Counted from the stretch's first letter, positions 38,750 through 58,640 are shown. The stretch: DNA of 64,000 bases from Minisyncoccota bacterium (GCA_041674225.1 JBAYWG010000001.1:326273-390272), one strand, 5' to 3'. Numbers and translations: made by a program. Notes: generated from the sequence alone by a model not told the origin.

Positions 38750-38884
38750 ATGTCAGTAACATATAACCCAAGTAATAAAAAAAGAAAGACAACACACGGA
38801 TTCCTTGTAAGAGGTAGAACTTCTGGTGGAAAGAACGTTTTAGCTAGACGACGAGCAAAAGGACGAGCAAAGCTTGCTGTTTAA
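38750..38884 (+). CDS. rpmH: 50S ribosomal protein L34
   Basis: Manual translation [44 protein letters not shown] (44 aa) matches the L34 family. Under 60 aa, so absent from the ORF track. Confidence 0.85.
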
Positions 38885-38888
38885 ATAA

Positions 38889-39206
38889 ATGCTTCCCAAA
38901 ACACAAAGGATCAATACCCAAAGATTCGGAGAAATTATGGCCTCTGGCAGGAATATTAACGCCGGAGGTTTTTATTTAAAGACTCTAAATAACGATTCTT
39001 TGAGGTTTGCTGTGGCAATTCCTAAAAAGGTGGTCAAAAGTGCCATTAAGAGGCATCTTCTAAAACGTCGTATATTCAACATTATTAAAGAAAACAAAGA
39101 CCTTTTCCCTGTGGCTGATTATATTGTTTTTACTAATAAAGAAGCTTTGGATTTAAATCGAGTTCAAATGGAAGAAGCTATTAAAATAGCAGCTCAAAAG
39201 GTATAA
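38889..39206 (+). CDS. rnpA: Ribonuclease P protein component
   Basis: 105 aa basic protein, LPKTQRI...FRFAVAIPKKV pattern; rpmH-rnpA-yidC synteny. Confidence 0.8.
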   Translation: MLPKTQRINTQRFGEIMASGRNINAGGFYLKTLNNDSLRFAVAIPKKVVKSAIKRHLLKRRIFNIIKENKDLFPVADYIVFTNKEALDLNRVQMEEAIKIAAQKV

Positions 39207-39215
39207 TAAAAAACT

Positions 39216-39995
39216 ATGAAAGAACTTTTTAATGACCTGTTTTTTATACCCCTTTACAATGTCCTAGTTTTCTTTATTGATATTATTCCTGGAGGAGATG
39301 TGGGGTTTGCGGTGATTGCCCTTACACTTATGGTGAAGTTTATTCTCTTCCCTCTTTCTAAATCAGCTGTACGAACTTCTATTAAAAGTCGAGAAATTCA
39401 ACCAGAACTAGAAGAACTAAAAACAAAATACAAAGATAATAGAGAGGAAATGGGTCGAGCAATGCTTGATTTGTACAAGAAGCACCAAATAAACCCTTTC
39501 TCTGGGATACTTCTTATTTTTATTCAATTGCCAGTTATTTTGGCTCTTTATTGGGTGGTATATAAAGGTGGTCTGCCAGCCATAAACACAGACATCCTTT
39601 ATTCTTTTATTAGTGCCCCTTTAAACGTCGACATGACCTTTCTTGGGGTATTTCACATTGCAGAATCAAAGAACATAACACTGGCGCTTTTGGCTGCTGT
39701 GACTCAACACATTCAAGCGCGATTATCTTTCCCAAAACAAGAAAAGAAAGAGAAAAAAGAATCAGACAAACCAGATTTCAAGGAAGATTTAATGAGAGGT
39801 ATGCAAATCCAAATCAAATGGGTTCTTCCTGTGATGGTGTTTGCTTTTTCTTATGGACTAATCGCGGTGGTTTCTTTGTATTGGACTATCTCAAACCTTT
39901 TTGCCATTGGACAAGAGATTTATATTCGGGAAACAATCAAAAAACCTGCTCAAAAACTTAAGGATCAATTAGATCTCGACGCTCCAAAGAGTTAA
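39216..39995 (+). CDS. yidC: Membrane protein insertase YidC (short form)
   Basis: 259 aa, 5 TM helices, conserved YidC/Oxa1 region (ILFPLSKSAVRTSIKSREIQPELEELKTKY...NPFSGILLIFIQLPV). Confidence 0.8.
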   Translation: MKELFNDLFFIPLYNVLVFFIDIIPGGDVGFAVIALTLMVKFILFPLSKSAVRTSIKSREIQPELEELKTKYKDNREEMGRAMLDLYKKHQINPFSGILLIFIQLPVILALYWVVYKGGLPAINTDILYSFISAPLNVDMTFLGVFHIAESKNITLALLAAVTQHIQARLSFPKQEKKEKKESDKPDFKEDLMRGMQIQIKWVLPVMVFAFSYGLIAVVSLYWTISNLFAIGQEIYIRETIKKPAQKLKDQLDLDAPKS

Positions 39996-41270
39996 ATCTC
40001 TTTTATTTACAAATAGAATAAAGTCATCTTTTGGACTTGTTGCAAGTTTTATCATGTCAAAACTTTGCTCCACCTCTTCCTTGTCACCTAAAATCTGATC
40101 GTATTGTTGAGTGTCTAGATTTATTCTCCAAAGGTTGTCAGCTAGAGATGTTGTTCCTTGATACCATGATTCAGGTAGAGCAACTCTTGGCATTTGAGTT
40201 GGTCCTGCGCAGAAAAGTACATCTTGGCTTGTTTGAGCAAAAACACATTTCTCAGGAAGAGTTGTCACTCCAAGTCTTTTTGTCTCCCCTGTTTCTGTGT
40301 TTAGTGAAAATGTACTGAACTCATTTGTTCTTGATACAGAGTATATTAGCCATTTTTCGTTAGAGCTAATTATTGCTGTAAGCCCAGATAAGTCTCCAAG
40401 TAGTTTTTCAGAAGATCCGTTCTGTGCATTTACAAGATAAGCAAAACCAGACACTCGCGAGTCAGCTTTTGTTGTCATTAAAATATTATTTGTGTTTACT
40501 CGCGAAATTACCCAATCTTTTAAAGGTGATTCCATAACTATTTTTTTAGAAAGGTCGTCGAGTGTAGATGTTATCAATGTGCTTCCGCCTGTGTTTTTTG
40601 GTAATAAATAAGTTAGTCCCGCCGCACTTAGTTTAGCGTCGATAAGGTTTGGAGAAAGATAAGTTCCTTCAAGTGCAAATCCGTCTGCAACCGGAGCCCC
40701 TCCAGAAGGTGATGTTGCAGATTTTTCAGTTACTTTAGCAGAAAGAGTCTGTGTTGATTCTTGGTCTTCATTTAAAATTCTCAAAAGAACCCTCTCTCCA
40801 TCTCTTGAAAAATAAGAATCAACCACACGTGGAATAGTTGTGTTTGAAAGCCTTGTTTGTGTCAAAGAGTCTTCCCTTGCTTCATAGAGGTGTCCTGTAG
40901 ATCTTTCAAGATATCGAAATACCACAAATGTATCTCTCTCTGTTGTTTCTGAACCATCTTCAGAAATAATTGGCCGAGAAGTGTTACCTGTTCTCTCGAT
41001 TGCAACAGATCCAGCTACAGGCACTTGAGAAAGTTGTCGAAGTCTTGGAATTAGATTTCGATTTAGAGGGTTTGTTCTGTTTGGATCAGCTCCAATTTCA
41101 CCATTTTCATCCATACCTGGAATATCAACAGGAAAGAAATCTTCAGGACGATTAAAAGCCGAAGGGTTTGTTGGATCCACATCTTCTTTTATAAAAAACA
41201 ACCAAACGACAAAACCGATAAAAGCAAATATTAAGATAAAAATTGTCCAAGCAAGTATTTTTCTAATCAT
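39969..41270 (-). CDS. Hypothetical membrane-anchored exported protein (last gene of the T4SS-like cluster)
   Basis: 433 aa, N-terminal TM, no recognised domain; co-directional and tightly packed with the cluster. Confidence 0.4.
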   Translation of the reverse strand: MIRKILAWTIFILIFAFIGFVVWLFFIKEDVDPTNPSAFNRPEDFFPVDIPGMDENGEIGADPNRTNPLNRNLIPRLRQLSQVPVAGSVAIERTGNTSRPIISEDGSETTERDTFVVFRYLERSTGHLYEAREDSLTQTRLSNTTIPRVVDSYFSRDGERVLLRILNEDQESTQTLSAKVTEKSATSPSGGAPVADGFALEGTYLSPNLIDAKLSAAGLTYLLPKNTGGSTLITSTLDDLSKKIVMESPLKDWVISRVNTNNILMTTKADSRVSGFAYLVNAQNGSSEKLLGDLSGLTAIISSNEKWLIYSVSRTNEFSTFSLNTETGETKRLGVTTLPEKCVFAQTSQDVLFCAGPTQMPRVALPESWYQGTTSLADNLWRINLDTQQYDQILGDKEEVEQSFDMIKLATSPKDDFILFVNKRDLTLWSVEI

Positions 41271-41284
41271 GAAATTATTATAAC

Positions 41285-42043
41285 CTATCTTCTAATCGCA
41301 CCTAGTGTGTAATTCTCTTTTTCAACTAATACCAATTCGAAACTTCCTAGTGCGTTATTATCTAGGCCGAGCGCAATTCGCCCCGCCTCTGAAATCATTA
41401 AAGTGTTCTCAATTGGGTTTCTAGAATCAATCTCCACCACTACTTCTTTGTTGTTAGTTAAATTTTTAATTTTTAAATATTTTGTTGATAGGAATCTGTT
41501 TGCAACCCCAGTGTTTTCTACTATTGTAAAACCTGATTTCAGGGCTAATTCACTGGTTGGATACGCGGCATAGTATTCTGCACTCGGAATTCTTTCTCTT
41601 ATTGGAACTCCACTTACTTCCCCTACATCTCCATATCCAAATCTTCCGCTTGCATCACCTGGTGTGAAAATAATATTTTCTCCTGCTGAGTCTTGTGCAA
41701 AATAATATTCCCCAAATTCGTCTGAAGAAACAAACTCCAGCCCACCAATACTTTTAGGATTTCTAATCAAAGAGTATTCAACATTATTTTTTATTACAGT
41801 TTTAATATCTTTTGGCCCACCGTATACATTTATTTTCAATTTATTAAGACCAAAAGATTCAAAATACTCTGTTGGGCTCGAAGATGTGTCTTCTTTTACA
41901 AAATCAAAAGATTGCTCTGCTGGAATATTTTCTGCTGGAGAGTTTGATACTTCTGCTCTATCTTGAAATGTAAAAATAATTCCAAAGATTGCAAAAATTA
42001 TTATGATGACAGAAACCCCTATAATTATTTGTTGTTTATTCAT
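41285..42043 (-). CDS. Hypothetical bitopic protein (N-terminal TM plus about 220 aa extracytoplasmic domain; VirB8-like topology possible)
   Basis: Topology and size only. Confidence 0.35.
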   Translation of the reverse strand: MNKQQIIIGVSVIIIIFAIFGIIFTFQDRAEVSNSPAENIPAEQSFDFVKEDTSSSPTEYFESFGLNKLKINVYGGPKDIKTVIKNNVEYSLIRNPKSIGGLEFVSSDEFGEYYFAQDSAGENIIFTPGDASGRFGYGDVGEVSGVPIRERIPSAEYYAAYPTSELALKSGFTIVENTGVANRFLSTKYLKIKNLTNNKEVVVEIDSRNPIENTLMISEAGRIALGLDNNALGSFELVLVEKENYTLGAIRR

Positions 42044-42681
42044 TATCCAAAAATATCAATTATGAATTTTGTACCATCTCCTTTTGATGGAAGAATTGTT
42101 GAAATCATTAGAATTGAAACTAGTGCAATCAAAAGACCTCCTAGAGCTGCGTAGATTTTGTCTTTTCCTGCCCCTTTTGCAAAAACAGATTCGCTTCCCA
42201 TATATTGAATTCCGCCCACAATCATCATTATTACCGCCAAAACAATAGTTATCGTGATTGAAACTGTAAAAATAGTTTCAATCATTCCACCCAAACCTGT
42301 TCTTCCGTCAAAAAAAGTTTGATAACCGGGCGTAATTGGTTTGTATTTACTTCCACTTGCGCTATTTGAGACAGGGTTGGTGCTTACATTCCTTCCCGCA
42401 GACGCTCCAAGGTTTCCAATGTTTGAATTGTTGGTGCTTACATTCCTTCCCGCAGACGCTCCAAGGTTTCCAATGTTTGAATTGTTGGGATTTACTCCCG
42501 AGTCTTGTTGTGCTGCTTCCGTAGACAATCTATCTTCCAGACGTTTTGCAGCTTCCTCCATTTGATCACTAAGATTAAGATTTGGACGCTGAGCTTGAGC
42601 GACAGTTGTGTTTATTGAATATATAAATATAAATACAATTACAAATATAAAATATTTAGTTTTAGAAAGCAGTTGTTGCAT
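42043..42681 (-). CDS. Signal-peptide protein with tandem 19-aa repeat and C-terminal pair of TM helices (candidate VirB2/TrbC-like pilin)
   Basis: N-terminal signal peptide, repeat NNSNIGNLGASAGRNVSTN twice, C-terminal hydrophobic hairpin GGMIETIFTVSITITIVLAVIMMIVGG...LLIALVSILMISTIL. Confidence 0.35.
   Translation of the reverse strand: MQQLLSKTKYFIFVIVFIFIYSINTTVAQAQRPNLNLSDQMEEAAKRLEDRLSTEAAQQDSGVNPNNSNIGNLGASAGRNVSTNNSNIGNLGASAGRNVSTNPVSNSASGSKYKPITPGYQTFFDGRTGLGGMIETIFTVSITITIVLAVIMMIVGGIQYMGSESVFAKGAGKDKIYAALGGLLIALVSILMISTILPSKGDGTKFIIDIFG
42378..42491. repeat. Perfect 57-bp tandem duplication (2 copies) inside the pilin-like gene
   Basis: TGGTGCTTACATTCCTTCCCGCAGACGCTCCAAGGTTTCCAATGTTTGAATTGT occurs twice in tandem. 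Confidence 0.85.
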
Positions 42682-43693
42682 CGTTGTTTATTGTATCAAA
42701 TTGTTGATTTCCCAACACGTTAATTTTGAAAAGATTACTCCCTTCTTGAAGAATGTTTTGAACATGCTCTACTTTTACAGATAAGCTAGCCGTTCCACTT
42801 TTTTCTTTCCCAGGATTTAAATAATTGATAAAGCTTCCAACAGAGTCGTCCCCTACTGGTCGGCCGTTTTCAAACCAAGAATATTGTAAATTTCCCGAAC
42901 TTCTTTCTTGTGCGCTAAAAAAGTATGGAACAGCCGTTATTCCCACCTCCTCTCTGTCAAAATTAAATGTTCCAGTAAGTGCTTTTTCAAAAATACTTCC
43001 ATAAATTGGATTATTTTCATAAAGGATAACTTGAGGAATTGTTGGATTTATTAAAATTCTTTTCTTTGCTGTGAGATTTGAATTGATAGATTCAGCCACT
43101 ACAGAAACATAAAAAGGTCTTGAGATTAAAGATCCTTGAATTTTGATACTATCTCTCCCCGTTCCAGAAGCCGATTGAATTATTTCGTCGTCCTTTGACC
43201 AAGTGTAAGTAATTCTTTCTTTTGGAAGTAAAACCCCATTTTCTATAAAATTTGTCATCGCCGCTACTGTCAGAGATGATTGATGCGTAAAAAGTGATCG
43301 TCCTTTGTAAAATGGAGGAACATAAGTATCTGCTTCATAAACTAAATCTAAGTCTGTAGGGTTAATAGAAATCGAATCACGCAAAACCAAACCATTTTCT
43401 TTAGTTACATTCACAGAAATATTCGAGTTCCTTCCAGATTCAGGGGCTTGAAATTGGAAAAAAGTCTCTCCCACCCCGCTTTTTTTTACAACCCCATCTA
43501 CTAGCCAAGAAATATTGGTCTTTTTTAGGCTCGCATAATAACTGCTTTTTACTTGTGCACTGACCATTTCTTTTGGTGCTGGAATTTTAGGAATAATTTC
43601 AATAGAAACTGTTTCATCAAAAGCAGATGAAGTTGTTTGTGCAAAAAATTGAATTGGAGAAAATATTAGTGCAAAGAGTATTAAATATTTCAT
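42662..43693 (-). CDS. Secreted hypothetical protein (signal peptide)
   Basis: MKYLILFALIFSPIQFFAQ signal peptide; 343 aa. Confidence 0.4.
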   Translation of the reverse strand: MKYLILFALIFSPIQFFAQTTSSAFDETVSIEIIPKIPAPKEMVSAQVKSSYYASLKKTNISWLVDGVVKKSGVGETFFQFQAPESGRNSNISVNVTKENGLVLRDSISINPTDLDLVYEADTYVPPFYKGRSLFTHQSSLTVAAMTNFIENGVLLPKERITYTWSKDDEIIQSASGTGRDSIKIQGSLISRPFYVSVVAESINSNLTAKKRILINPTIPQVILYENNPIYGSIFEKALTGTFNFDREEVGITAVPYFFSAQERSSGNLQYSWFENGRPVGDDSVGSFINYLNPGKEKSGTASLSVKVEHVQNILQEGSNLFKINVLGNQQFDTINNDATTAF

Positions 43694-43754
43694 TATGATT
43701 ATTTTAACTCTTTTTAAAAAAGTTAACTACTTATTTATTAAATACAAAAAGGTT

Positions 43755-44327
43755 TTATTTCTTTGCCGCGGCTTTTTGGGCAGCTTTATCTGCTAGGGCG
43801 CTATCAAGATAGTTCCAAATAAATATAATTGTAAACAAAGGAAGCGCTTCTATAACAGGAATGCTCTCTGCGGCTATCGCAACAAGCCTCAACCATTTTG
43901 GAAGCTTCAGCGCCGCTTTAAAAGCTTCTTCTGCTTTAGCTGCTGCTTCAGCAAGCTTTCCGGCTTTCTGGAGTCTGTTAGAGCTTCCCATATATCGGGT
44001 TACTTTTCTAAAATCTGTAATTGTGCTCGCTTTATGAACATCTTCATATCCAAAGCTACTTTCCAGATTCCTTGCATTAGCTTGATGTTTTTTGTCTTTT
44101 TTATGTAGATAAATAAGGAGTAGCGGGGTAAAAATAAATGTAGTACAGATCCATACGATGGCAGCACCTGGTCCTGTGAAGTATCCTCCAATATCTATTA
44201 TGTCTACCAAGATACAAAGTATCAGCATAAGAATATCAAGACCAACGTCTTTTTTTGTGGTGGTCTCAGTCTGAGAAGTTTTTCCGTTTCCCTGTCTGGC
44301 TAGTCGGGTCACCTTTTCGTTTGCCAT
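43755..44327 (-). CDS. Membrane protein, hypothetical (T4SS-associated)
   Basis: 190 aa, several TM helices, Ala/Lys-rich C-terminus; immediately downstream of VirB4. Confidence 0.4.
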   Translation of the reverse strand: MANEKVTRLARQGNGKTSQTETTTKKDVGLDILMLILCILVDIIDIGGYFTGPGAAIVWICTTFIFTPLLLIYLHKKDKKHQANARNLESSFGYEDVHKASTITDFRKVTRYMGSSNRLQKAGKLAEAAAKAEEAFKAALKLPKWLRLVAIAAESIPVIEALPLFTIIFIWNYLDSALADKAAQKAAAKK

Positions 44328-44328
44328 G

Positions 44329-46209
44329 TTAGTTTACTGTATTACTTTTAACCTCTGTTGTTCGTCGAGCTAGGACGTCAGACGCTTTTGTTCCTGCAGA
44401 TTCTTTCAAATCAGATTTAGCTTTTTTGATTTGTAGAACCTGTGAAGGGTCGGATGTAATAATCTGATCCTCTGTATAAGAAGCAATAATTTTAATAGCA
44501 ACGTGTTTGATTCCGGCGAAGAAGATTCCCTCCCCCACATCAGATTCTAGAAGTAGATATTTTTCTTCTTCGGTTAGGTTGAAAGTTTGCTGAATCATAT
44601 CAATCGCTGTTGGAGATTGTTTTAACAAAAGTTGAATCGATGAGTTGGTAATAATTGGCATTCCATAAGGTGATCGCAAAAAGTCTTCCACGTCTTGTGT
44701 AATTGTAGACATTCCCAAATAATATTTTCGTCCTCGTTTTGCAAGACCAAACAAAAATGATGCAGTGTCTTCTGATTTCATCATCCACCATGCCTCATCA
44801 ATCACTAATAATCTTTTCTTTAATTGCTTTCTAACTGCATTCCAAATAAAGTGTGTCACCAAATACATCGCAACTGGTTTTAGTTCATCTTCCATGTCTC
44901 TCAAAGAAAACACGACGAATCTTTTATTTATATCTACGTTTGTTGGTCTATTGATGAAACCTGACCATGTTCCTCGAGTGTATTTAGAAAGTTTTTGTGC
45001 CAAAGATTCCCCTCCTTCCATTCCAGACAAAACATATTCGAAGTCTGAAAGAAGTGGCGGTTCAATATTTGAGAAATCACTTTCAGGAGTAATATCTTTC
45101 AATGCATAAGTTTCTGCAATTGCTCTATCCACGATAGCATCTTCTTCTGGAGTTAATCCTCCAAGCATCAGTCGGAAAAGCCCTACAAGGTTTACAATGT
45201 TTGAGCGCAAAATATCAGACGCAGCTTCATCATCTCTTGCTGGCGGAAGATCAAAAGGGTTAATGTGGTGATCTGATGTAAGAGAAATGTTGAAGTACCT
45301 TCCTCCTGTGGCTTCTGCCAAGAATTCGTATTCCCTTTCAGGGTCGATTACTAGCACATCTGTTTCAAACATTAGTGTTCTCAAAATTTCTAGTTTTGTA
45401 GCGTAAGATTTTCCAGAACCGGCTTTCGCAAACGTTACAGAGTTGTAGTTTTCTAGACTGAATCTATCAAACAAAATTAGTGAACTGTTGTGTCGGTTGA
45501 TTCCAAAAAGAATTCCTTTGTCTGATGTAAGGTCAAAAGAAATAAAAGGAAACAAACTTGAAAGAGGTGCAGAATTTAGTTTTGAATGAACTCCTAAAAT
45601 ATCTTGAGCAGTTGGAATAACAGTTTTAAAACCTTCCTCTTGTTGAAAAAGTGCAGGTTTTACATAAACTAATTTTGCTTCAAGAATTGATTTTATTTCT
45701 GATTCAAATTTATCTAGTTCATCTTTGCTTTCTGCATAAATAGAAAAATAGAGTCCAACATCAAATATTTTTTCTTGAGCTTGCTGCAAACTGTCTCTCA
45801 AAATTTCCAAATCTTGATAAGCTGTATCCAATATAGGATCTCGAACCAACCCTTTATTTTCTCGTGTGTGAATTTGTGATTGTACTTCCGCAACTTTCTT
45901 TTTGAATTGTCGCAAAATTGTAGCCGTATCTATCGGGTGAACATAAATAGAAATATCAAAAACTCTGTCCAAGTTAATCACCGGAGAAAACCAAGAGTCA
46001 GACAAAAATCTTGGATATGAAATCACAAAGAAACTTCTCACCATTTTGTCCCCCAGGTTTATTTCCCTAGGTGTTACTTTCAAAGCGCTCGGTGCAATCA
46101 CATCTTGCAACTCCAAAACTCCAGCTTCATAAATTTCTTGTGGCAGAAAAGAAGTAATCTGTGTTGGTTCTTTTTGTTTTTTTCCTTTTATAAAATCAAG
46201 TATTCCCAT
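44329..46209 (-). CDS. Type IV secretion system ATPase VirB4/TrbE/TraC family (C-terminal ATPase portion)
   Basis: Walker A FAKAGSGKSYA; Walker B LLVIDEAWWMM (DEAW is characteristic of VirB4); C-terminal RGRKYYLGMSTITQDVEDF. Confidence 0.8.
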   Translation of the reverse strand: MGILDFIKGKKQKEPTQITSFLPQEIYEAGVLELQDVIAPSALKVTPREINLGDKMVRSFFVISYPRFLSDSWFSPVINLDRVFDISIYVHPIDTATILRQFKKKVAEVQSQIHTRENKGLVRDPILDTAYQDLEILRDSLQQAQEKIFDVGLYFSIYAESKDELDKFESEIKSILEAKLVYVKPALFQQEEGFKTVIPTAQDILGVHSKLNSAPLSSLFPFISFDLTSDKGILFGINRHNSSLILFDRFSLENYNSVTFAKAGSGKSYATKLEILRTLMFETDVLVIDPEREYEFLAEATGGRYFNISLTSDHHINPFDLPPARDDEAASDILRSNIVNLVGLFRLMLGGLTPEEDAIVDRAIAETYALKDITPESDFSNIEPPLLSDFEYVLSGMEGGESLAQKLSKYTRGTWSGFINRPTNVDINKRFVVFSLRDMEDELKPVAMYLVTHFIWNAVRKQLKKRLLVIDEAWWMMKSEDTASFLFGLAKRGRKYYLGMSTITQDVEDFLRSPYGMPIITNSSIQLLLKQSPTAIDMIQQTFNLTEEEKYLLLESDVGEGIFFAGIKHVAIKIIASYTEDQIITSDPSQVLQIKKAKSDLKESAGTKASDVLARRTTEVKSNTVN

Positions 46210-46213
46210 GTTT

Positions 46214-46852
46214 TTAATTTACCGGAATCGGTTTTTCTACATCTCCTGGATTGAACAGTCTATAAAAAACTTCAATCGCTTCTTCTGTTCCTAATTGTAC
46301 AGCTCTTACTCCTGCTCTTGTAATACCTTGTTGTACGACCGCAATCCTTTGTTCTATTTGTGTGCTGTGTTCTTCAAAATCCTCTTTCTTCCCCGCTGCC
46401 ACTGTGGCGGCACTTTGTTTTTTGAAAAAACCTTTGCTCTTGTTGGAGTTGATGTTGATTGTTGCAGGTGTATAAGGCACAACGATGTAAAAAGTTTTGG
46501 TCATAATATTTGTTCTGTCTGTGAAAGCCTTGATGAATTCAATGTATTCCTTTACTTGGATACGCATCAAATCGTTTATTTGTTCTTTTTCTCGCACCTC
46601 CAATGTTGCGATGTATGGTCGGATGTCTAGCCTTCGTGATTGAATAAAAATCTGTACGCTGAAATTTAGAGAGTTTAGAAATTGTTGAAATTGGAAAATA
46701 ATAGAATCTTGCTCATCTTGAGACTTAAGTGCGAAGTTTACAGAAGATGTCATCAATAGAGCACGCATCGAACCATCTTTCAAAACTAAAATTCCATTAC
46801 GAACTTCTTTAATCGGAACAATTGTTTGTGTTGATTTTTTACTTTCCGCCAT
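46214..46852 (-). CDS. VirB4 N-terminal domain-like protein (split from the ATPase ORF)
   Basis: IVPIKEVRNGILVLKDGSMRALLMTSSVNFALKSQDEQ...IQSRRLDIRPY resembles the VirB4/TraC N-terminal domain. The stop is 4 nt before the ATG of the ATPase ORF, in a different frame. Confidence 0.5.
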   Translation of the reverse strand: MAESKKSTQTIVPIKEVRNGILVLKDGSMRALLMTSSVNFALKSQDEQDSIIFQFQQFLNSLNFSVQIFIQSRRLDIRPYIATLEVREKEQINDLMRIQVKEYIEFIKAFTDRTNIMTKTFYIVVPYTPATININSNKSKGFFKKQSAATVAAGKKEDFEEHSTQIEQRIAVVQQGITRAGVRAVQLGTEEAIEVFYRLFNPGDVEKPIPVN

Positions 46853-46869
46853 AATATTTTTTTATTATA

Positions 46870-47298
46870 TCACTGCTTCGGAGTAATATCGTCTAAAGTT
46901 TCTAGAGTTTCGTGAATATCTAATCCCCAAGATAAATCTTTTAGTTTGCTGTTTGAAAGTTTTGGCACATCAAGTGATGCTCTTTGAATAATTTCTGCAG
47001 CTTGTTTCTCCGGAGTTCGCTCTCTTTTTTTCCAAAGATAAAGTTTTGGTGCAAATAAATATTTAAAGAAATGTTCGATTGCTATCACTAGTGGTCTGTC
47101 GTTTACTTTCCAAAAAGCTAATCCAAAAAACAAAGCCACAAAAGGTGCTCCAAATAAAATTGCTAAAAATCTCGGAAAGGTTGTCCAAAAAACAAAGCCG
47201 ATAGCTATCCCCGCTCCAGCATAAAGGAATTGTTTTAATGTAAATGGTCCGAATATTTTATCTTCGATTTCTAAGAATTGTGGAACTTGATATTTCAT
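46870..47298 (-). CDS. VirB3/PrgI-like small two-TM membrane protein
   Basis: 142 aa, two adjacent TM helices (FLYAGAGIAIGFVFWT...LAILFGAPFVALFFGLAFW), positioned directly upstream of the VirB4 N-domain. Confidence 0.45.
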   Translation of the reverse strand: MKYQVPQFLEIEDKIFGPFTLKQFLYAGAGIAIGFVFWTTFPRFLAILFGAPFVALFFGLAFWKVNDRPLVIAIEHFFKYLFAPKLYLWKKRERTPEKQAAEIIQRASLDVPKLSNSKLKDLSWGLDIHETLETLDDITPKQ

Positions 47299-47307
47299 AT
47301 TTATATT

Positions 47308-48120
47308 CTACGCTACTGGTTCTCTGTATGGATCTACTTTTGCAGGTTGAGTTGTGTTTGGTGGTGTGATTTTTTCTTCAAATACTGATGTATCAACCGA
47401 TTTTGGCATTGGAATGAAGATTGGCTTTGGTGGAGTAACCGGTTTAATTGTGACTGGCTCAGGTTTTATTTCTGCAACAACTGGTGGAACTATAAGTGTT
47501 ATTGGGGTCTTTGGAATTTCTGGCGCCACAGGAACAGTTGGAATAGTTGGAATTTTTAAGTCTTCTGGAATAGGTTCTTTGTAAGGATCTTCCTTTTTTA
47601 CTTCTACGACAGACGGCACAGGTGGTGTAACTGGAGAAACTGAAGCATCTTTAGTTTCGTTTTTATTTTCAAAATAATCAGAAGGAATTTTGTTTTTTAG
47701 AGAAGGTTTTGAATTTATTTTTACCGCACTCTCGATATCTTGAGCAACTCTGTTTAGTTGGCTGTTGGCCTCTCTGTCTACATCCGCGACTGTATCTGCT
47801 GTCTCTGTAATAGAAATCAGTTTCCGGCGGATGTCTCCAAAGATTTCTCGTTCAACTTCGTTTGAAATTGTATAAGCTTGATCGTCACTTACTCCTGCAT
47901 ACTCTTTTGCGTTTCGTACAAAAGTTTCTGGAGTTTCTATTCCTAACATTGTGATGAAAACTAGATTTTCAATGGCTGCTCCTTGATCAACATGAAGATT
48001 GTTATTTTTTACAACTCTACGAATTTTTTCTTGCCAATTAGAACCAGTGATAGTATCTCGAATTACCGGTGGTAATGTTTTGAATTGTTCTTTTATGATG
48101 CTTTGTGTGTCGTTATCCAT
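47308..48120 (-). CDS. Pro/Val/Thr-rich hypothetical protein (no TM)
   Basis: C-terminal PxxP-rich low-complexity region (TPPVPSVVEV...IPTIPTVPVAPEIPKTPITL...). Confidence 0.4.
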   Translation of the reverse strand: MDNDTQSIIKEQFKTLPPVIRDTITGSNWQEKIRRVVKNNNLHVDQGAAIENLVFITMLGIETPETFVRNAKEYAGVSDDQAYTISNEVEREIFGDIRRKLISITETADTVADVDREANSQLNRVAQDIESAVKINSKPSLKNKIPSDYFENKNETKDASVSPVTPPVPSVVEVKKEDPYKEPIPEDLKIPTIPTVPVAPEIPKTPITLIVPPVVAEIKPEPVTIKPVTPPKPIFIPMPKSVDTSVFEEKITPPNTTQPAKVDPYREPVA

Positions 48121-48123
48121 ATT

Positions 48124-50214
48124 TTATTTTCCCTCTTTATCTCCTCCTTTGCTATCAGATTTATTATCCGGCTTCTTGTCATCCCCTTCCAATAGTTTTT
48201 TTAGATCCTTCAATTGTTTTTGTTCTGTAGACATTGCTTTCATAATTTCCCCAGCTGCCTTCTTGTCAATTGACTTTGCACTTGGCAACCAAGTGGTTGG
48301 CATAACTAAGTCTATTTTGGTGCGATTTCCTTCTAAATTATCCGCGTGCTTCATTCTTTGTGATTTCATTGCCACAACTTTTTCAAGTGCTTTGTATTCA
48401 TCAGTGTCTCTTACTCTAGTTTCATGTGTGCTTAAATTTTGTGTGGCATTAGATAGGAGTGTGTTAATGCGCTTCATTCGTTCTGAATCTCCTGAAGATT
48501 TTGCAGCTTCATAATCAATATTTAGTTCATTGATTGTCTTTTTAGCCTCCACAACATAATCATCAGAATTTATAGATGCTTCCATGTCTTTCTTAGCTTG
48601 TTTTTGTGCCTCTTTTTGATCATCTGTAAAGCCGTCGCTTAGATTTTTTGAGCGGTCAACTCTTAGTTTTTGAGATCTTTCTTGTTGACCTATGTAACCA
48701 TCTTTTGTTGGAGCAAGTGTTCCTTTAAAGTCTCCTCCAACTCCTGTGGCAGAAGCTACACCTTTAAAGACTTTGGATTCTCTAAGATCAAAGCCAGATT
48801 TAGCAACCCCTTTCATTCCACTTAGTAGTGTCATCCCCGCTCGTGTTGTAGCAAAATTACTTTTTGCAAATTTGTCTGCACCGGCACTAGCTGCCCAACC
48901 AACTGTATTTCTACCAGCAAAACCAATTGTTCCAAGAATTGTCCCACCGACAGCCGATGAAACGCCACCGCTGATTTTGCTAACAGCCGCACTTCCTCCT
49001 GATGATACTTTTTGAGCTACGATTAGTGCGGCAACAAAAAGTCCTATTATAATTCCATAAATCATTGCTACTCCACCAACCACATTAACCACTGATGCAA
49101 AGGTAGAAGTACCTTCTACTGTATTGTTGAGTGCATTCTCTGTTATCTTTGCCACATTTTCTGGCACCTTTTCGGCTATTTTTACCGCAACATATATAAA
49201 CAAAAGAAATGCCGGTAGAAAAAAAGAATGACCCACCAAAGATCTCCACCATTCTTCGGATATTTTTTTTGTGTTTGGCAAAACCATACTTGCAAAAGCA
49301 ATCGGAGATACAATCAAAAGAAGAATAAGAGCAACTAATCTTCCTATTATGATACTTAAAGCTGAAAACAAAACTGCAGCTAAAACTAATGACGTTATAC
49401 CACTCAGTGTGGAAGCCACTGCCACGACTAACATTTTTTGGAAAAAAGTACCTATTGCCCATCCTGTTTCAAATGCTGTTTTAGATCCAGGTAATTTTTT
49501 ATACCAAGGCATTTCAGAGTATGTTTTCTCAAGAAGCTTTTCTTGGTTTTTGTCGAATTGAGAGTTCATTATTGACCCGAACGCCGCCACTTGGGTTTTT
49601 TCATAGAAATAAGAACCAAGCTTTAGACTGTCACCATTGTCTCCAGAAGAATTTTTATCAGTCTCTTCTTTTATTTGGTCATAAATTGTTAAAGCCATTT
49701 CGTTAGAAATATCGATAACCACTGCTCCAAAGAAAAAACTAAAGTTCATTAAAAGTGCTGCCAAGATAGCTTTGCTTAAAAGTTTCTTGGCTTCATATCC
49801 ACTGAACTGAAGTATTGTGCTGATTGCAATAAAAATAAGCACAAAAATAATTCCAATATTGGCAATATTTCTAAAAATTTTCCAAGAGTCTTGGACAATG
49901 TTACTACCTGTGACAAAGTCACTCATACCATACACAGCCAGATCTATTGCTAAATCGAAACCATAAGAGGCAATCCCCAAGACAAGTGCTGCTATGGATG
50001 AAAAAAAGTAAGCAATAACTGCAAGTACAGGAGAGGCTAGCTGCAATCCTTCCGCGGGAAGATCGACAAGAGGTTTCTCTGTGAGGTCTTTTTCTTCTGG
50101 TGTTTCGGACGCCGCCGGTGCATCTTGTGCAAAGACAAAATCAGACGGGTTAAGAAATATTGTGAATAAAAAAAGTAATACAAAAAAACTTTTTTTATTA
50201 AACAAAAAACTCAT
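48124..50214 (-). CDS. VirB6/TrbL-like polytopic membrane protein with charged C-terminal tail
   Basis: 696 aa, signal-like N-terminus, at least 8 TM helices over the first 450 aa, then a hydrophilic Lys/Asp-rich tail; architecture and position match VirB6/TrbL. Confidence 0.5.
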   Translation of the reverse strand: MSFLFNKKSFFVLLFLFTIFLNPSDFVFAQDAPAASETPEEKDLTEKPLVDLPAEGLQLASPVLAVIAYFFSSIAALVLGIASYGFDLAIDLAVYGMSDFVTGSNIVQDSWKIFRNIANIGIIFVLIFIAISTILQFSGYEAKKLLSKAILAALLMNFSFFFGAVVIDISNEMALTIYDQIKEETDKNSSGDNGDSLKLGSYFYEKTQVAAFGSIMNSQFDKNQEKLLEKTYSEMPWYKKLPGSKTAFETGWAIGTFFQKMLVVAVASTLSGITSLVLAAVLFSALSIIIGRLVALILLLIVSPIAFASMVLPNTKKISEEWWRSLVGHSFFLPAFLLFIYVAVKIAEKVPENVAKITENALNNTVEGTSTFASVVNVVGGVAMIYGIIIGLFVAALIVAQKVSSGGSAAVSKISGGVSSAVGGTILGTIGFAGRNTVGWAASAGADKFAKSNFATTRAGMTLLSGMKGVAKSGFDLRESKVFKGVASATGVGGDFKGTLAPTKDGYIGQQERSQKLRVDRSKNLSDGFTDDQKEAQKQAKKDMEASINSDDYVVEAKKTINELNIDYEAAKSSGDSERMKRINTLLSNATQNLSTHETRVRDTDEYKALEKVVAMKSQRMKHADNLEGNRTKIDLVMPTTWLPSAKSIDKKAAGEIMKAMSTEQKQLKDLKKLLEGDDKKPDNKSDSKGGDKEGK

Positions 50215-50267
50215 ATGAAAATTATAACATTAGGATTGAAATTTAAAACAAAACTATTCAGTTTTGT

Positions 50268-51884
50268 TTATGAAATATCCTCACCTAGTTCCTTCGTCAT
50301 TTGATAAACTTTTGAAAAATACTCTGCGATAAGTTTTCCATCTTCCCCTGCTTCGTCTAGTCCTACAAATCTACTTATCGCAAGCATCATGTGTTCTAGT
50401 GCTTGTGGTAAATAATGTGTTGCAGGGATTACAATATCACCTGTTTCTGGATCAGTGATGTTTAAATGTCCTTGTGCTATTTCTGTTTCATAAGCGAGCT
50501 CTCGAGTGTTTGAAGTTATTATTTCATCAACCTCCAATGCTATTTCAAAGTGTTTAAATAGAACACTTCCTCTAGCATCTGATTGAGTTAGAAAGTTTTC
50601 TATTTTATTTAAATCATATTTTTCTTCACTAGATTCTTCGGCTGAACATTGCTGATTTGACTCTCGATTGATTAAGGATTGGCTATTTCTGACTTTAACC
50701 AAAGATTCAGCAATATTCTTTTCTTCTTCCGGTAAACATGACTTTGCTTCTTGAAGTTTTTCAATAGCTTGTTCAAATGCTTTATCTTGAATGTTTATGA
50801 AGTGTTTTTTGTAATTAACTACAAAAGTAGGCTTATCATCATTTCCTGTGTATAGGAAATTTGTTGATTTCTCAATCATGATTTTGATAGAAACATCGAT
50901 ATTGCAGTTAGAAACAGCATCAAGCGAAGGGGTTTTTTCTTTTTCATCTACCCTACCAATTTCTTTTTCTGTAAGTGCTGCAATGTTTTTCTCTATGTTT
51001 TGGATAGGTGTAACTATTGGTTTAGGATCGGTTGGTACTAATTGTTCTTTGGGTTCTTCTGGCTTCTTTTGTTGAAGCTCCTCACGCATTTTTTCTGTCT
51101 TTTTATCTTGTTCTTCACACTTTTGTTCATCCTTTTGTTTTTGAGTTGCATCTTCATCACCCTCTGTTACATCCTCTGTGGTAAATGTTCCAGGGTCGTC
51201 TTCTTCTTCTCCGTCGGGGTTAGAGTCAGGGTTATTTGGATCGTTTGGATTATTTCCACCTCCACCACCTCCAGGATTGTTTGGATCAGTAGGATTATTT
51301 GGATTATTTGGATTGTTTCCAGTGTTACCACCAGTGTTTCCTCCGGTATTACCACCGGTATTTCCTCCTGTGTTACCACCAGTGTTACCACCAGTGTTTC
51401 CTCCGGTATTACCACCGGTATTTCCTCCTGTGTTACCACCAGTATTACCACCGGTATTTCCTCCTGTGTTACCACCAGTATTACCACCACCTCCAGGAAT
51501 ATTTGGAATTTCCAGAACAGTTACAGTACAATCGTCTGAAAGAGTTATTCCCCCTGTTGTGATTGTTACTGTAGCCGTTTTTATACCAATGTTTGAATAC
51601 CTTGCTGTTGTTGTCGCTCTGTTCACGTCTTGTATAGAATTACCTTCCCATTCATAAGAAATTGTAGAACTTGCATTTGAAACAATTGCTCTCCAAGTTA
51701 CAGTTGAATTCTTCAAAACAATATTTTGGTGAGGTTCACATTTAACACTTAATGGCGCTGGAGCTGTTTGTGCTTGTGTTTGTCGAGAAAAAGCCTGAAA
51801 CGAGAAAAAGGCAATAATCAAAACACCTAAAACACCGCTTAAAATTATTTTCAGAACTTTTTTTAAATTAAATTGATTTGTCAT
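50268..51884 (-). CDS. Secreted or surface protein with Ig/PKD-like N-terminal region, about 19 GGNT repeats, an Asn/Pro-rich and acidic linker, and a C-terminal globular domain
   Basis: N-terminal TM/signal; beta-rich Thr/Ser segment (NSTVTWRAIVSNASSTISYEWEGNS...TVTITTGGITL); (GGNT)n; NPNNPNNPTDPNNPGGGGGG. Confidence 0.5.
   Translation of the reverse strand: MTNQFNLKKVLKIILSGVLGVLIIAFFSFQAFSRQTQAQTAPAPLSVKCEPHQNIVLKNSTVTWRAIVSNASSTISYEWEGNSIQDVNRATTTARYSNIGIKTATVTITTGGITLSDDCTVTVLEIPNIPGGGGNTGGNTGGNTGGNTGGNTGGNTGGNTGGNTGGNTGGNTGGNTGGNTGGNTGGNTGNNPNNPNNPTDPNNPGGGGGGNNPNDPNNPDSNPDGEEEDDPGTFTTEDVTEGDEDATQKQKDEQKCEEQDKKTEKMREELQQKKPEEPKEQLVPTDPKPIVTPIQNIEKNIAALTEKEIGRVDEKEKTPSLDAVSNCNIDVSIKIMIEKSTNFLYTGNDDKPTFVVNYKKHFINIQDKAFEQAIEKLQEAKSCLPEEEKNIAESLVKVRNSQSLINRESNQQCSAEESSEEKYDLNKIENFLTQSDARGSVLFKHFEIALEVDEIITSNTRELAYETEIAQGHLNITDPETGDIVIPATHYLPQALEHMMLAISRFVGLDEAGEDGKLIAEYFSKVYQMTKELGEDIS
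51318..51490. repeat. 12-nt tandem repeat array (about 14 units; higher-order 60-nt units 51341..51400 and 51401..51460) encoding (GGNT)n
   Basis: GTGTTACCACCA / GTATTTCCTCCG-type units directly visible in the sequence. Confidence 0.85.
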
Positions 51885-51887
51885 GTT

Positions 51888-52694
51888 TTAAAAATTTCCC
51901 CAGAGAATTCCTGATTCATCTTCTGAAAAAATTATATCATTTAATTTAAAGTAGTATGAAATATTTGATAAAATTTCCGGTTGAATTTCTCTGATTTGAT
52001 TATATTGATTTAAAAACAAAGAAAGCAAGATGGGATCCTCATCTGTTTGTGCAATTTTAACTAACAAGATATTAATCTTATATAAATTGTTTATATACTT
52101 TAAATGGTCATCAGAAATACTTCTTGGGATGCTAATTTTTGACAATTCCTCGGCCTCTTCCCCAAAAACATTAGAGTATTTAATAATAAATTCCATATCA
52201 TCTTCAGCATCTACAGTTCTTAGTTTGTTTGTGTATTTTGTAATTATTTTTGCAAACTGGTTTCCGTATTGTTTAGCGTCATCTTTTCTATAATCAGGAA
52301 AAGTTGAAAGTTGATAAATAGAGTATTTGTTTGGGATTGTAGTAGCGGCAACAGTTTCTTCAGCTAGTTTTGTTGTTAGTTTATCTAAGTTTTCTGGCGT
52401 ATTTAGTGACCGGTTTTTTAAATCTTCATAATTTCCAAGAAGTCCTAGTAGCACAGATTCTGAAAAAGTTTCTGGCGGCGTGTAGTCAATTTTATCTGGA
52501 TTTTTCTCTGCTTCCTCTAATAGAAATTGTTCCAAAGTTTTTACAGGTGAATTATCCATAACCTCAGTACCGTCTACCTCACCGAATACTTTTTGCAGAG
52601 ATCTTTTTGCCATTACATCTTTTCCAATCAAAGCAATCATCAAGGATACTGTGATGATTATTACTCCTATTACTTTTCTACTTGGCTTTTGCAT
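51888..52694 (-). CDS. Hypothetical membrane-anchored protein (first gene of the cluster)
   Basis: 268 aa, N-terminal TM. Confidence 0.4.
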   Translation of the reverse strand: MQKPSRKVIGVIIITVSLMIALIGKDVMAKRSLQKVFGEVDGTEVMDNSPVKTLEQFLLEEAEKNPDKIDYTPPETFSESVLLGLLGNYEDLKNRSLNTPENLDKLTTKLAEETVAATTIPNKYSIYQLSTFPDYRKDDAKQYGNQFAKIITKYTNKLRTVDAEDDMEFIIKYSNVFGEEAEELSKISIPRSISDDHLKYINNLYKINILLVKIAQTDEDPILLSLFLNQYNQIREIQPEILSNISYYFKLNDIIFSEDESGILWGNF

Positions 52695-52740: not shown

Positions 52741-53193
52741 ATGAATTTGTTTAAAAATAATATAAATAAAATATTATTAATCACTGTGGCGCTTGGTTTT
52801 TTATTCTTGCAAGAGTCGCTGAGATTCACAAATGTTGAAGATGCCGTGTCTAATGGTTTAAACACAGCGGCACTCAGTCAGACGTCTTGGATGAATCAGA
52901 AGCGTCACCAAGGTGAGCCTTTTGGCGGTTATATACTCACTAGAATAGAATGTGATTGTGAAGGAAATTACATTGTTTTAATTAATGATTATGTTAGCCG
53001 GTCTAATCTTTGGCTTAAAGTTGAAAAGGGTAAATCAACTATTTATGAATACGGGAAGGAACTTACTCCTAATAAATATACCCTAGGTACTTATGATAAA
53101 GGTGCTACATGCAAGATGCAGGTTCGGGATTGTAAGCCTGCTAAAGTTGATGGAGTAATAAACAGCGGTCCGGGTGCTGGAGTTTCTAAATAA
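52741..53193 (+). CDS. Secreted hypothetical protein
   Basis: Signal peptide-like N-terminus, 150 aa. Confidence 0.4.
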   Translation: MNLFKNNINKILLITVALGFLFLQESLRFTNVEDAVSNGLNTAALSQTSWMNQKRHQGEPFGGYILTRIECDCEGNYIVLINDYVSRSNLWLKVEKGKSTIYEYGKELTPNKYTLGTYDKGATCKMQVRDCKPAKVDGVINSGPGAGVSK

Positions 53194-57119: not shown

Positions 57120-58640
57120 TTATTCAACCCTTCGATACTGAAAGGCTTCTAATATATGAGAGTCTTTAATTTCTGGCGAAGTTTCTAGGTCTGCAATCGT
57201 TCGAGAAAGTTTTAAGATTTTGTGAATTACTCGTGCGGAGAGGTTTAATTTTTCTGAAAGTTGTTTTAATAATTTTTTATTTGATTCGTCCAGTTTTATA
57301 TACTCATTTATTTTCGATGCAGGAATTTTTGAGTTTAAAAAACCTTGTCTTTTAATTTGCAATTCTCTAGCGCGCTCTATTTTTTCTCTATAAATTTGAG
57401 ATTCAGTTTTGGGGTTTGTTTGCGGTGATATTTTTTGATCAATCAAATCAGCTGCAACAATTTGATCAACACAAATACACATATCAATTCGATCTAAAAT
57501 TGGCCCAGAGATTTTTTGTTTGTATTTTAAGATTGATTGATTACTGCAATCACATTGCTTAATATTGGTTTGATAATAACCGCACGGACATGGATTCATT
57601 GTTGTGATTAAAATAAAACTCGCAGGGTATGTCACAGAACCATTTTTTCTAGCCAGAGAAATCTTTCCGTCTTCAAGCGGACCTCTCAATGATTCAATCG
57701 CTCTCCTGTCGAATTCAGGAAATTCATCTAGAAATAAAACCCCACAATGTGCGAGTGTGATTTCTCCAATATTTAAATTTCCTCCACCTCCACAAATCGC
57801 TGTGTATGAAGCACTGTGATGTGGTGCTCGAAAAGGTCTTTGTGCAAAATTTTCAGGAGACAATAATCCTGCGCTCGAATAAATTGTTGTGATCTCCAAT
57901 AGTTCTTTTTCATTTGGTATTGGCAAAATATCTTTGAACGCTTTTGAAAGCATTGTTTTCCCTGTTCCGGGTGGACCCAAAAAAGAAATGTTGTGTTCTC
58001 CTGCTCCCGCTATCTCCAATCCTCGTTTTGCTATTTGTTGCCCTTTTATATTTTCAAAATCAATTTCGATTACCCTTTCTTTGTTTTTTAAAAAAGTTTT
58101 TCTTTGTGATTCAATAGATTCACTCTTTTGCAGATGATTAATTACTTGCAACAAATTTTTGGCAGGATAAATTTTTATTCCATCTATCAATCCAGCCTCC
58201 ACCCCATTTTCAAAAGGAATAAATATTTCTTTAAAACCTTTTTCTTTTGCAAATTTTGCAATTGGCAATGCCCCTTGAATTTTTCGAAGTCCTCCATCCA
58301 ACGCTAGTTCCCCTACAAAAACTGATTGACCAGTCTCAAATTCAAATTTCTCTGACGCTTTTAAATACCCCACGGCTATAGCTAAATCAAAAAGCGGTCC
58401 GTGTTTTTTAATATGCGCAGGAGCGAGCGATACCAGAATCCTTTCGTTCTTTTGTTTCGGAGATTTAAATCCAGAATTCTTTATTGCAGATGTCACTCTG
58501 TCTCGCGCTTCAGAAATAGCTTTATCCCCCAGCCCAACAATATTTAAAGAATAAATCCCATTAGAAATATCAACCTCTACATCCACCTTCTCGGTATTTA
58601 AATTCGAAACATGCGCGCTATACACTTTTGAAAATGACAT
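57120..58640 (-). CDS. comM: YifB/ComM-family Mg-chelatase-like AAA+ ATPase (competence protein ComM)
   Basis: N-terminal ChlI-like domain; Walker A GPPGTGKTML; Cys-rich insertion; C-terminal Mg_chelatase_C-like domain. Confidence 0.85.
   Translation of the reverse strand: MSFSKVYSAHVSNLNTEKVDVEVDISNGIYSLNIVGLGDKAISEARDRVTSAIKNSGFKSPKQKNERILVSLAPAHIKKHGPLFDLAIAVGYLKASEKFEFETGQSVFVGELALDGGLRKIQGALPIAKFAKEKGFKEIFIPFENGVEAGLIDGIKIYPAKNLLQVINHLQKSESIESQRKTFLKNKERVIEIDFENIKGQQIAKRGLEIAGAGEHNISFLGPPGTGKTMLSKAFKDILPIPNEKELLEITTIYSSAGLLSPENFAQRPFRAPHHSASYTAICGGGGNLNIGEITLAHCGVLFLDEFPEFDRRAIESLRGPLEDGKISLARKNGSVTYPASFILITTMNPCPCGYYQTNIKQCDCSNQSILKYKQKISGPILDRIDMCICVDQIVAADLIDQKISPQTNPKTESQIYREKIERARELQIKRQGFLNSKIPASKINEYIKLDESNKKLLKQLSEKLNLSARVIHKILKLSRTIADLETSPEIKDSHILEAFQYRRVE

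Follow-up and report, generated by a model that had tools for sequence, protein, structure and literature searches.

A 12-gene cluster on the minus strand of a 64,000-nucleotide (nt) stretch of DNA from a Minisyncoccota bacterium (GCA_041674225.1, JBAYWG010000001.1:326273-390272; here called the window) very probably encodes a chromosomal, vertically inherited Patescibacteria type IV secretion system (T4SS). In the reading that we favor with that degree of confidence, the system has the Paceibacteria arrangement beside replication-origin genes, is derived from the MPF-FATA class, and is a nonconjugative apparatus for contact with a host. What was observed here comprises the identities of the components, their conserved synteny, and a window free of conjugation genes. 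A preliminary description of the sequence had proposed a T4SS-like, nonconjugative system, and this proposal agrees with what has been published on T4SSs of Patescibacteria (PMC12102498, PMC10633639, PMC12857230). The cluster is not unusual: it is the standard origin-proximal Paceibacteria locus described in 2025, a clean and complete example of a kind of system already published, and it is a typical member of its family and not a new one. Its interest lies in the central part that such T4SSs are believed to play in the life of the ultrasmall, biosynthetically poor Patescibacteria on other cells.

The cluster consists of 12 tightly packed, codirectional open reading frames (ORFs) that fill 39969..52694 and are numbered g1 to g12 in order of transcription (Table 1). 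The preliminary description had counted eleven genes; the common direction and tight packing that it reported stood, but the count did not. Spacing between the genes ranges from -20 to +61 nt, with some neighbors abutting or overlapping, and an operon structure is proposed because of this spacing, which is its sole basis. A promoter and terminator scan of the cluster returned sites no more frequently than in shuffled sequence. Five of the ORFs have public gene calls that agree with the calls made here, and the GC content of the cluster (0.35-0.37) is that of the rest of the window.

The gene g7 encodes a VirB4-family ATPase of the MPF-FATA type. Its product matched the NCBIfam family "VirB4-like conjugal transfer ATPase, CD1110 family" over model positions 178-733 (E of 4e-110; 369 bits against a cutoff of 325) and also matched the Pfam families P-loop_TraG (9.6e-25), AAA_10, and DUF87. 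The Walker A (GSGKS) and Walker B (VIDEAW) motifs noticed in the preliminary description were confirmed at residues 264 and 469, respectively. For comparison, 80 related loci, 43 of them full-length, were taken from GTDB genomes on the basis of VirB4 similarity, and Walker-type patterns (G.GKS; hydrophobic-DE[A/G]W) were present in all 80 of the VirB4 orthologs. Homologs of g7 numbered at least 8000 candidates at an E of <=1e-10. Among the best 120 matches listed, identity was 79-100% and the named ones belonged to Paceibacteria/Parcubacteria, and a protein identical to g7 was found in a public metagenome-assembled genome of Candidatus Paceibacterota. The nearest plasmid-borne VirB4 proteins were 27-35% identical, were of the CD1110 type, and came from Firmicutes and Actinobacteria.

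The N-terminal domain of VirB4 that is missing from g7 is predicted to be supplied by the gene directly upstream, g6. The g6 product matched the N-terminal parts of three NCBIfam models, namely, VirB4_plasma (1.7e-9), the CD1110 family (2.1e-7; positions 2-119), and TIGR00929 (1.4e-6; positions 4-183), as well as the TrsD/TraD family (2.5e-6), and its public annotation is PF26593, TraC-like. A frameshift artifact behind the TrsD/VirB4 split was ruled out, and the split is taken to be conserved, because a separate counterpart of ~212 amino acids (aa) was found in 79 of the 80 loci. Next to g6, the product of g5 matched the Pfam PrgI family (PF12666) with an E of 1.9e-8 and 35.2 bits, above the cutoff of 27; the public gene call names the same family, and homologs were found in 78/80 loci. 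A VirB3-like protein with two transmembrane (TM) segments had been placed just upstream of VirB4 in the preliminary description. The family assignment was upheld, but the position was not, as the TrsD-like ORF lies between the two genes. We conclude that the identities of g5, g6, and g7 are secure.

The gene g3 encodes a polytopic membrane protein with a signal peptide, approximately six TM helices, and a hydrophilic, coiled-coil C-terminal tail of ~290 aa. We accept "extended VirB6" as the designation of this predicted protein because its orthologs matched TrbL and membrane protein families of monoderm conjugation systems. Six of 46 orthologs matched Pfam TrbL, the best at 6e-5, and the same 46 gave matches to CD3337/EF1877 (five), MMCAP2_0566 (two; 1.4e-9), Mbov_0396 (two), and pLS20_p028 (one). 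A homolog was present in 58/80 loci, always upstream of PrgI, and the relative position of g3 is that of the CD1112 VirB6 gene in plasmid pCDC3875. When the VirB6-like alignment was searched as a profile against the PDB, the only matches were coiled-coil noise attributable to the C-terminal tail. The topology claimed for a VirB6/TrbL-like protein of about 700 aa was thus reproduced, and its family match was obtained through orthologs only.

A putative VirB2-like pilin is encoded by g10, likewise assigned through orthologs. The protein has a signal peptide, an N-terminal extension that includes a duplicated 18-residue unit, and a C-terminal two-helix pilin domain with TM segments at 137-155 and 179-197. 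Its own best family match, to the Mbov_0395 pilin-like family, was weak (0.018), and T4SS_pilin (PF18895) was matched 26 times, at best with 2.1e-9, in a mixed set of proteins that included ~30 orthologs of g10. A pilin profile built from the orthologs matched g10 alone in the window (1.2e-29), a value that is partly circular given that g10 was in the profile, and the same search found no pilin paralogs besides g10 in the window. The pilin-like protein of the preliminary description was in this way upheld by topology and by the orthologs. Within the N-terminal extension, a perfect 54-nt tandem repeat (2.1 copies, 100% identical) lies at 42376-42488. The pilin domain is C-terminal in g10; most orthologs instead have it at the N terminus, with a long tail of variable sequence after it. 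We conclude that the cluster holds a complete inner-membrane T4SS module, composed of VirB6-like, VirB3-like, and split VirB4 proteins, together with a VirB2-like pilin.

The arrangement of these genes is conserved. In nearly all of the 43 full-length loci, the order was uvrD-ksgA-[variable genes]-VirB6-like-(g4)-PrgI-TrsD-VirB4-(g8)-triple-Ig-(pilin)-propeller-yidC-(rnpA)-dnaA-dnaN. The exceptions were one locus (L031) without uvrD, ksgA, and the VirB6-like gene upstream and another (L054) with no yidC, dnaA, or dnaN matches. Among 29 genomes with all comparators, median identity was 78.5% for VirB4, 59.9% for DnaA, 52.9% for UvrD, 50.0% for DnaN, 47.9% for KsgA, and 43.4% for YidC, and VirB4 ranked first of the six proteins in each of the 29; the margin is large, even though picking the loci by VirB4 similarity biases the comparison somewhat. 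Identity was only 27-30% for other parts of the T4SS (VirB6-like, propeller, and triple-Ig). The values for VirB4 point to strong purifying selection on this protein. Conservation of VirB4 above that of the neighboring replication proteins is unusually strong and worth recording, and it supports a core cellular function and not that of a mobile accessory.

Four further genes recur within the cluster. The product of g4 is soluble and consists of a conserved N-terminal helical domain and a variable proline-rich linker, after which it ends in the invariant motif DPYREP, which looks like a docking peptide. Homologs lie between the VirB6-like gene and PrgI in 33/80 loci; no family was matched, and a PDB profile search returned neither VirB8 nor any other informative match. 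For g8, tblastn found no homolog among the 80 loci. A profile made from 45 positional counterparts, which are small proteins with two to four TM segments, matched g8 at an E of 4e-11 and matched no other cluster protein, and a gene in this position was missing from about a quarter of the loci. The g9 product begins with a signal-peptide-like segment, and an AlphaFold2 model based on the family alignment had a mean predicted local distance difference test score (pLDDT) of 88.0. Its top Foldseek matches in the PDB (E of 1e-8 to 1e-6) were phage Hoc, NCAM Ig1-3, the SiiE adhesin, and FnIII arrays, consistent with an adhesin-like or stalk-like protein with three Ig domains. The g12 product is laid out as a TM helix (2-26), a disordered linker (28-71), and a propeller (77-432), and it was modeled from its family alignment with a mean pLDDT of 85.7; Foldseek matched oligogalacturonate lyase, TolB, tricorn, and WD40 propellers (E of ~1e-8), the sequence profile gave weak TolB matches (E of 0.02), and Cys342 and Cys354 are invariant. 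As modeled, neither g9 nor g12 resembles VirB8, VirB9, or VirB10. A VirB8- or VirB9/10-like fold had been suggested for the 433-aa protein in the preliminary description, and the beta-propeller model contradicts it.

The three remaining genes are variable. Orthologs of g1 carry a DxDxD calcium-binding-like insert; g1 itself had no Pfam or NCBIfam match, and a PDB sequence-profile search returned neither VirB8 nor another informative match. The product of g2 has an N-terminal hydrophobic segment, approximately 14 copies of GGNT, and N/P-rich and acidic stretches, and it matched no Pfam or NCBIfam family. Its 12-nt tandem repeat (14.2 copies) is at 51319-51489 and, with the 54-nt repeat in the pilin gene, confirms the repeat proteins reported earlier. 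The 252-aa protein g11, for which a VirB8- or VirB9/10-like fold had likewise been suggested, belongs to a tiny lineage-specific family (11 representatives at an E of <=0.001 among 1.84 billion proteins), and sequence searches gave no evidence of VirB8, DPBB, or another domain. An RlpA-like DPBB wall hydrolase, which would be a VirB1 analog, was considered for g11. Its sole support was a PDB match to PA4485 with an E of 1.4, and it was ruled out when a Pfam scan of the 11-member family returned no DPBB and the distant matches proved to be beta-propeller-repeat or unrelated proteins.

The distribution of these genes bears on where the machine ends. One possibility is that the machine comprises the central five or six genes, from the VirB6-like gene to the small membrane protein gene, plus the pilin and that the propeller, the triple-Ig protein, g1, g2, and g11 are unrelated envelope proteins that share the operon. 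Homologs of g1 at the same position were limited to 18/80 loci, and those of g2 and g11 were each limited to the two closest loci, which speaks for this possibility; moreover, the folds of g9 and g12 are generic and have no counterpart in described T4SSs. However, homologs of g9 were found in 74/80 loci and those of g12 in 64/80, the latter invariably located between the genes for the pilin and YidC. With respect to virB4 and the pilin gene, both keep their exact places across genomes whose housekeeping proteins have diverged to 45-60% identity, and the genes abut or overlap. On balance, we consider the smaller machine unlikely, though it is the strongest of the alternatives, and we retain g9 and g12 as candidate parts of the host-contact T4SS.

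Components of conjugation were absent from the window. All ORFs of at least 300 aa in the window were scanned, and none encoded VirD4, a relaxase, or VirB11, as the preliminary description had also reported. The type IV coupling protein (T4CP; VirD4 or TcpA) and MOB relaxase of conjugative MPF-FATA T4SSs are both missing among these ORFs. The parts that distinguish diderm MPF-T and ComB systems, namely, the VirB7/VirB9/VirB10 core, VirB5, VirB8, and VirB11, had no family matches in the cluster, and sequence-profile searches with g1, g4, and g11 gave no VirB8 match. Family scans found no hydrolase domain in the 12 cluster genes. An M23 peptidase with a LysM domain encoded near the cluster may stand in for the missing VirB1-type wall hydrolase.

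The cluster agrees with a published class of systems. A survey of 3,035 genomes of Patescibacteria (Quinonero-Coronel et al. 2025, Microb Genom; PMC12102498) described a monophyletic Patescibacteria VirB4 clade that is nested in MPF-FATA, with a phylogeny that indicates vertical inheritance within classes. In that survey, TrsD was the most frequent neighbor of virB4, with PrgI/VirB3, VirB6, and VirB2-like pilins nearby and relaxases almost absent, and virB4 of Paceibacteria had dnaA, dnaN, rnpA, rpmH, and ksgA as neighbors. The same features were found here: an MPF-FATA-related VirB4 with TrsD-like and PrgI/VirB3 genes beside it, a VirB6-like polytopic protein nearby (recognized through orthologs only), a VirB2-like pilin (PF18895/PF04956; recognized through orthologs and topology), no relaxase or T4CP near virB4, and a chromosomal site among dnaA, dnaN, rnpA, rpmH, and ksgA. 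The high identity of g7 to named Paceibacteria/Parcubacteria proteins, its low identity to the nearest VirB4 proteins of Firmicutes and Actinobacteria, and its above-cutoff CD1110 score lend strong, though indirect, support to a probable place for it in the Patescibacteria clade. Nothing essential differs; the window has a single pilin gene and not an array, and the cluster has no VirB1.

The only such system with genetic evidence is that of Southlakia epibionticum ML1, in which the T4SS (SEML1_0006-0019) was found to be essential for epibiotic growth (Wang et al. 2023, Cell; PMC10633639), as were its pilins (PMC10633639; PMC12857230). A comparison with Saccharibacteria T4SS loci had been suggested in the preliminary description, and it revealed a collinear core: the VirB6-like, PrgI, TrsD-like hypothetical, and VirB4 genes of the cluster correspond in order to SEML1_0013..0008. 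The locus tags of the Southlakia system are also origin proximal, its pilins belong to PF18895, an exported Ig/E-set protein is encoded nearby (SEML1_0005), and it has no recognizable coupling protein or relaxase. The two systems differ in several respects. In Southlakia, the pilin genes number six and are transcribed divergently, two VirB6-like proteins of very large size are encoded, and virB4 is directly followed by a lysozyme/glucosaminidase gene. The window has one pilin gene on the same strand and one VirB6-like protein of 696 aa, and its cluster encodes a conserved beta-propeller but lacks a hydrolase. Southlakia belongs to Saccharimonadia, whereas the window organism belongs to Paceibacteria.

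More distant relatives are found on plasmids. The core of the cluster is collinear with the transfer region of Clostridium botulinum pCDC3875 (CD1110/CTn2 subclass), which reads VirD4-x-VirB6-PrgI-x-VirB4-small ORF-SLT hydrolase, but the window lacks VirD4 and the cluster lacks an SLT/VirB1 hydrolase. A separate TrsD before VirB4 is shared with the TrsC-TrsD-TrsE subclass of pGO1 (PMC12102498). Unlike MPF-FATA systems of Firmicutes, from which its VirB4 differs to the degree given above, the system has no relaxase in the window, is chromosomal, fixed in position, and vertically inherited, and includes a VirB2-like pilin, which Gram-positive systems lack (PMC12857230).

Most likely, the cluster builds a pilus or translocon that is powered by VirB4 and mediates interaction with a host. 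Pilin extraction and polymerization by VirB4 require no coupling protein in established T4SS biology. From here on, we infer how a pilus would form, what g9 and g12 would do, and what would be transported and in which direction. The extended VirB6-like protein (g3), PrgI/VirB3 (g5), and g8 would form a membrane platform on which the split VirB4, made up of the g6 N-domain and the g7 ATPase, would dock via VirB3 and VirB6. By analogy, VirB4 would then power extraction of the g10 pilin from the membrane and its polymerization, and the resulting filament or conduit would cross the monoderm cell wall. The propeller and the triple-Ig protein may be conserved extracytoplasmic partners in the place occupied by VirB7-10 in diderms or by adhesins in Gram-positive bacteria, and g1, g2, and g11 may be variable, lineage-specific surface accessories. 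So assembled, the apparatus would serve contact and exchange with a host cell, either as protein export or as import of host material, and not relaxase-driven conjugation. The data are compatible with protein export, with import of host material or DNA, and with adhesion alone, and they do not discriminate among these. In the literature, a pilus conduit for exchange with the host has been offered as a speculation (PMC12857230), and effector delivery and nucleotide or DNA acquisition have been put forward as ideas (PMC11665869).

A bolder version of this reading is that the T4SS is a housekeeping-grade organelle, a VirB2-like tube into the host that imports macromolecules or metabolites, and that the propeller, the triple-Ig protein, g8, and the DPYREP protein are unrecognized subunits replacing the wall-spanning parts VirB7-10 and VirB8. 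We regard this version as doubtful. The genes for these four proteins (propeller, triple-Ig, the membrane family after virB4, and DPYREP) were left unannotated in the survey (PMC12102498) and are what the present analysis adds; they could guide structural or genetic work in cultivable relatives.

A second alternative is that the primary function is DNA uptake. The ComB system of Helicobacter pylori, the archaeal Ced system, and the Ptl system of Bordetella all function with VirB4 and without VirD4 or a relaxase, and ComB keeps VirB2-, VirB3-, and VirB6-like parts. Ptl and Brucella T4SSs have been cited as coupling-protein-free examples (PMC12857230). By this account the VirB2/VirB3/VirB4/VirB6 subset in the cluster, which resembles ComB in being without VirD4, VirB11, and a relaxase, imports host or environmental DNA as a source of nucleotides or for transformation. 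A local match to the DNA import protein CedB (1.1e-8) lends itself to this account but falls far under the CedB cutoff; VirB4 aside, there is no specific sequence relationship to ComB, Ced, or Ptl. ComB and Ptl, moreover, are diderm systems with VirB7-10 channel proteins, none of which was detectable in the cluster. Patescibacteria are unable to synthesize nucleotides, and one candidate route that has been suggested for acquiring them is the T4SS (PMC11665869). In Southlakia, however, cells survived deletion of comEC with competence abolished, but they cannot do without the T4SS, and competence is already explained by type IV pili (PMC12857230, a 2025 review). The essential role of the T4SS is therefore not ComEC-dependent transformation, because the comEC deletion is viable and the T4SS is indispensable.

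The preliminary description had also taken the nearness of PilB and ComM to be consistent with DNA uptake. Both genes are in the window at the positions then reported, but they say little on uptake because housekeeping genes separate both from the cluster: RuvB, TyrRS/TrpRS, PBP1, dnaN, and dnaA on the PilB side and ksgA, uvrD, and the M23 peptidase gene on the ComM side. Furthermore, comM was found in only 1/80 related flanks, although it would lie at the limit of the flank fetched. We therefore think it improbable that DNA uptake is the primary function, and we favor the host-contact apparatus.

The weakest alternative, an integrated conjugative element or its remnant that came to lie beside the origin by chance, can be dismissed as very improbable. 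In its favor, the CD1110 family to which g7 belongs is named after conjugative transposon and plasmid proteins, the order of the core is that of a Clostridium plasmid transfer region, and a tyrosine recombinase is encoded ~9.5 kb from the cluster. The recombinase, however, is of the XerC/D type, and ksgA, uvrD, M23, comM, and other genes intervene. No integrase was found in or beside the cluster, which also lacks a relaxase and T4CP; no tRNA adjoins the cluster, no flanking direct repeats or att-like repeats were found, and neither a variable location nor a compositional shift was seen. Nearly all full-length related genomes have the same locus and the same housekeeping flanks, VirB4 is conserved above DnaA, and the published phylogeny indicates vertical inheritance within classes (PMC12102498). 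The fixed flanks, the conservation of VirB4, and the absence of signs of mobility are what would be expected of a core function passed on vertically and not of a mobile element.

Several points weigh against the host-contact T4SS that we favor. The scan for conjugation genes covered the window, and Patescibacteria genomes commonly encode T4CP homologs at other sites (PMC12102498). Within the cluster, no gene resembling that for VirB8 or VirB1 was found. Neither g3 nor g10 reached family thresholds in its own hidden Markov model scans (no significant Pfam or NCBIfam match for either), and alignment of g3 with one CD1112 VirB6 protein by hhalign was not significant (E of 0.47), with an aligned stretch that includes the region of the invariant Arg292. 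Membership of g9 and g12 in the machine is argued from conserved adjacency alone. The role of Patescibacteria T4SSs was called "completely unknown" in a 2024 perspective (PMC11665869), no function having been demonstrated for any of them, and, as there are no cultured Paceibacteria, essentiality is extrapolated from Saccharimonadia.

Table 1. Genes of the T4SS cluster, in order of transcription, and other features of the window
Feature	Coordinates	Strand	Length (aa)	Description
g1	51888..52694	-	268	Bitopic; N-terminal TM anchor (8-26) and external domain; ksgA-proximal edge
g2	50268..51884	-	538	Secreted or anchored repeat protein, lineage-specific
g3	48124..50214	-	696	Extended VirB6/TrbL-like polytopic membrane protein
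g4	47308..48120	-	270	Soluble, no TM segment
g5	46870..47298	-	142	PrgI family, VirB3 equivalent of monoderm T4SSs; two TM segments
g6	46214..46852	-	212	TrsD-like, free-standing VirB4 N-terminal domain
g7	44329..46209	-	626	VirB4-family ATPase, C-terminal two-thirds of canonical VirB4
g8	43755..44327	-	190	Small polytopic membrane protein, three TM segments, directly after virB4
g9	42662..43693	-	343	Secreted; three tandem Ig/FnIII-like beta-sandwich domains (predicted)
g10	42043..42681	-	212	VirB2-like T4SS pilin (putative)
g11	41285..42043	-	252	Bitopic, one TM segment (6-24); lineage-specific accessory
g12	39969..41270	-	433	Membrane-anchored extracytoplasmic beta-propeller (predicted); last cluster gene
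yidC	39216-39995			Adjoins g12
rnpA	38889-39206			yidC side of cluster
rpmH	38750-38884			yidC side of cluster
dnaA	37273-38664			yidC side of cluster
dnaN	35900-37000			yidC side of cluster
PilB-type ATPase	25453-27225	+		T2SSE, 7e-120; ~12.7 kb from cluster end
ksgA/rsmA	53195-53992			g1 side of cluster
UvrD/PcrA-type helicase	54004-55941			Named from helicase motifs in translation, not by Pfam scan
M23 peptidase with LysM domain	56113-57117	+		3.4 kb from cluster, opposite strand
ComM	57120..58640			Mg_chelatase, 4e-80; ~4.4 kb from cluster end
Tyrosine recombinase	62233-63192	+		XerC/D-type domain pair; ~9.5 kb from cluster, not adjacent

The yidC flank of the cluster carries replication-origin genes. 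Proximity to the origin is inferred because the gene order is dnaN-dnaA / rpmH-rnpA-yidC, and the location beside oriC given in the preliminary description has this order as its basis; DnaA boxes allowing up to one mismatch were not clearly enriched, however, with 25 observed against 17.6 expected. The genes g12 and yidC are convergent, and their 3' ends overlap by 27 nt (39969-39995). At the other edge, a 150-aa ORF (52741-53193, plus strand) is divergent from g1 at a distance of 46 nt and encodes an N-terminal hydrophobic segment and several cysteines; it had no family match, and homologs were found in 4/80 loci only. In 10/80 related loci, the M23-LysM peptidase gene was again found on the upstream side of uvrD. 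The next gene after that for PilB is that for RuvB and not another pilus gene. Farther from the cluster and not adjacent to it, a 351-aa ORF (59930-60985, minus strand) matched no Pfam family. Finally, an HlyD-family adaptor gene beside an FtsX-like permease gene (12041-14774, minus strand) constitutes a MacAB-like export module in an organism presumed to be monoderm.

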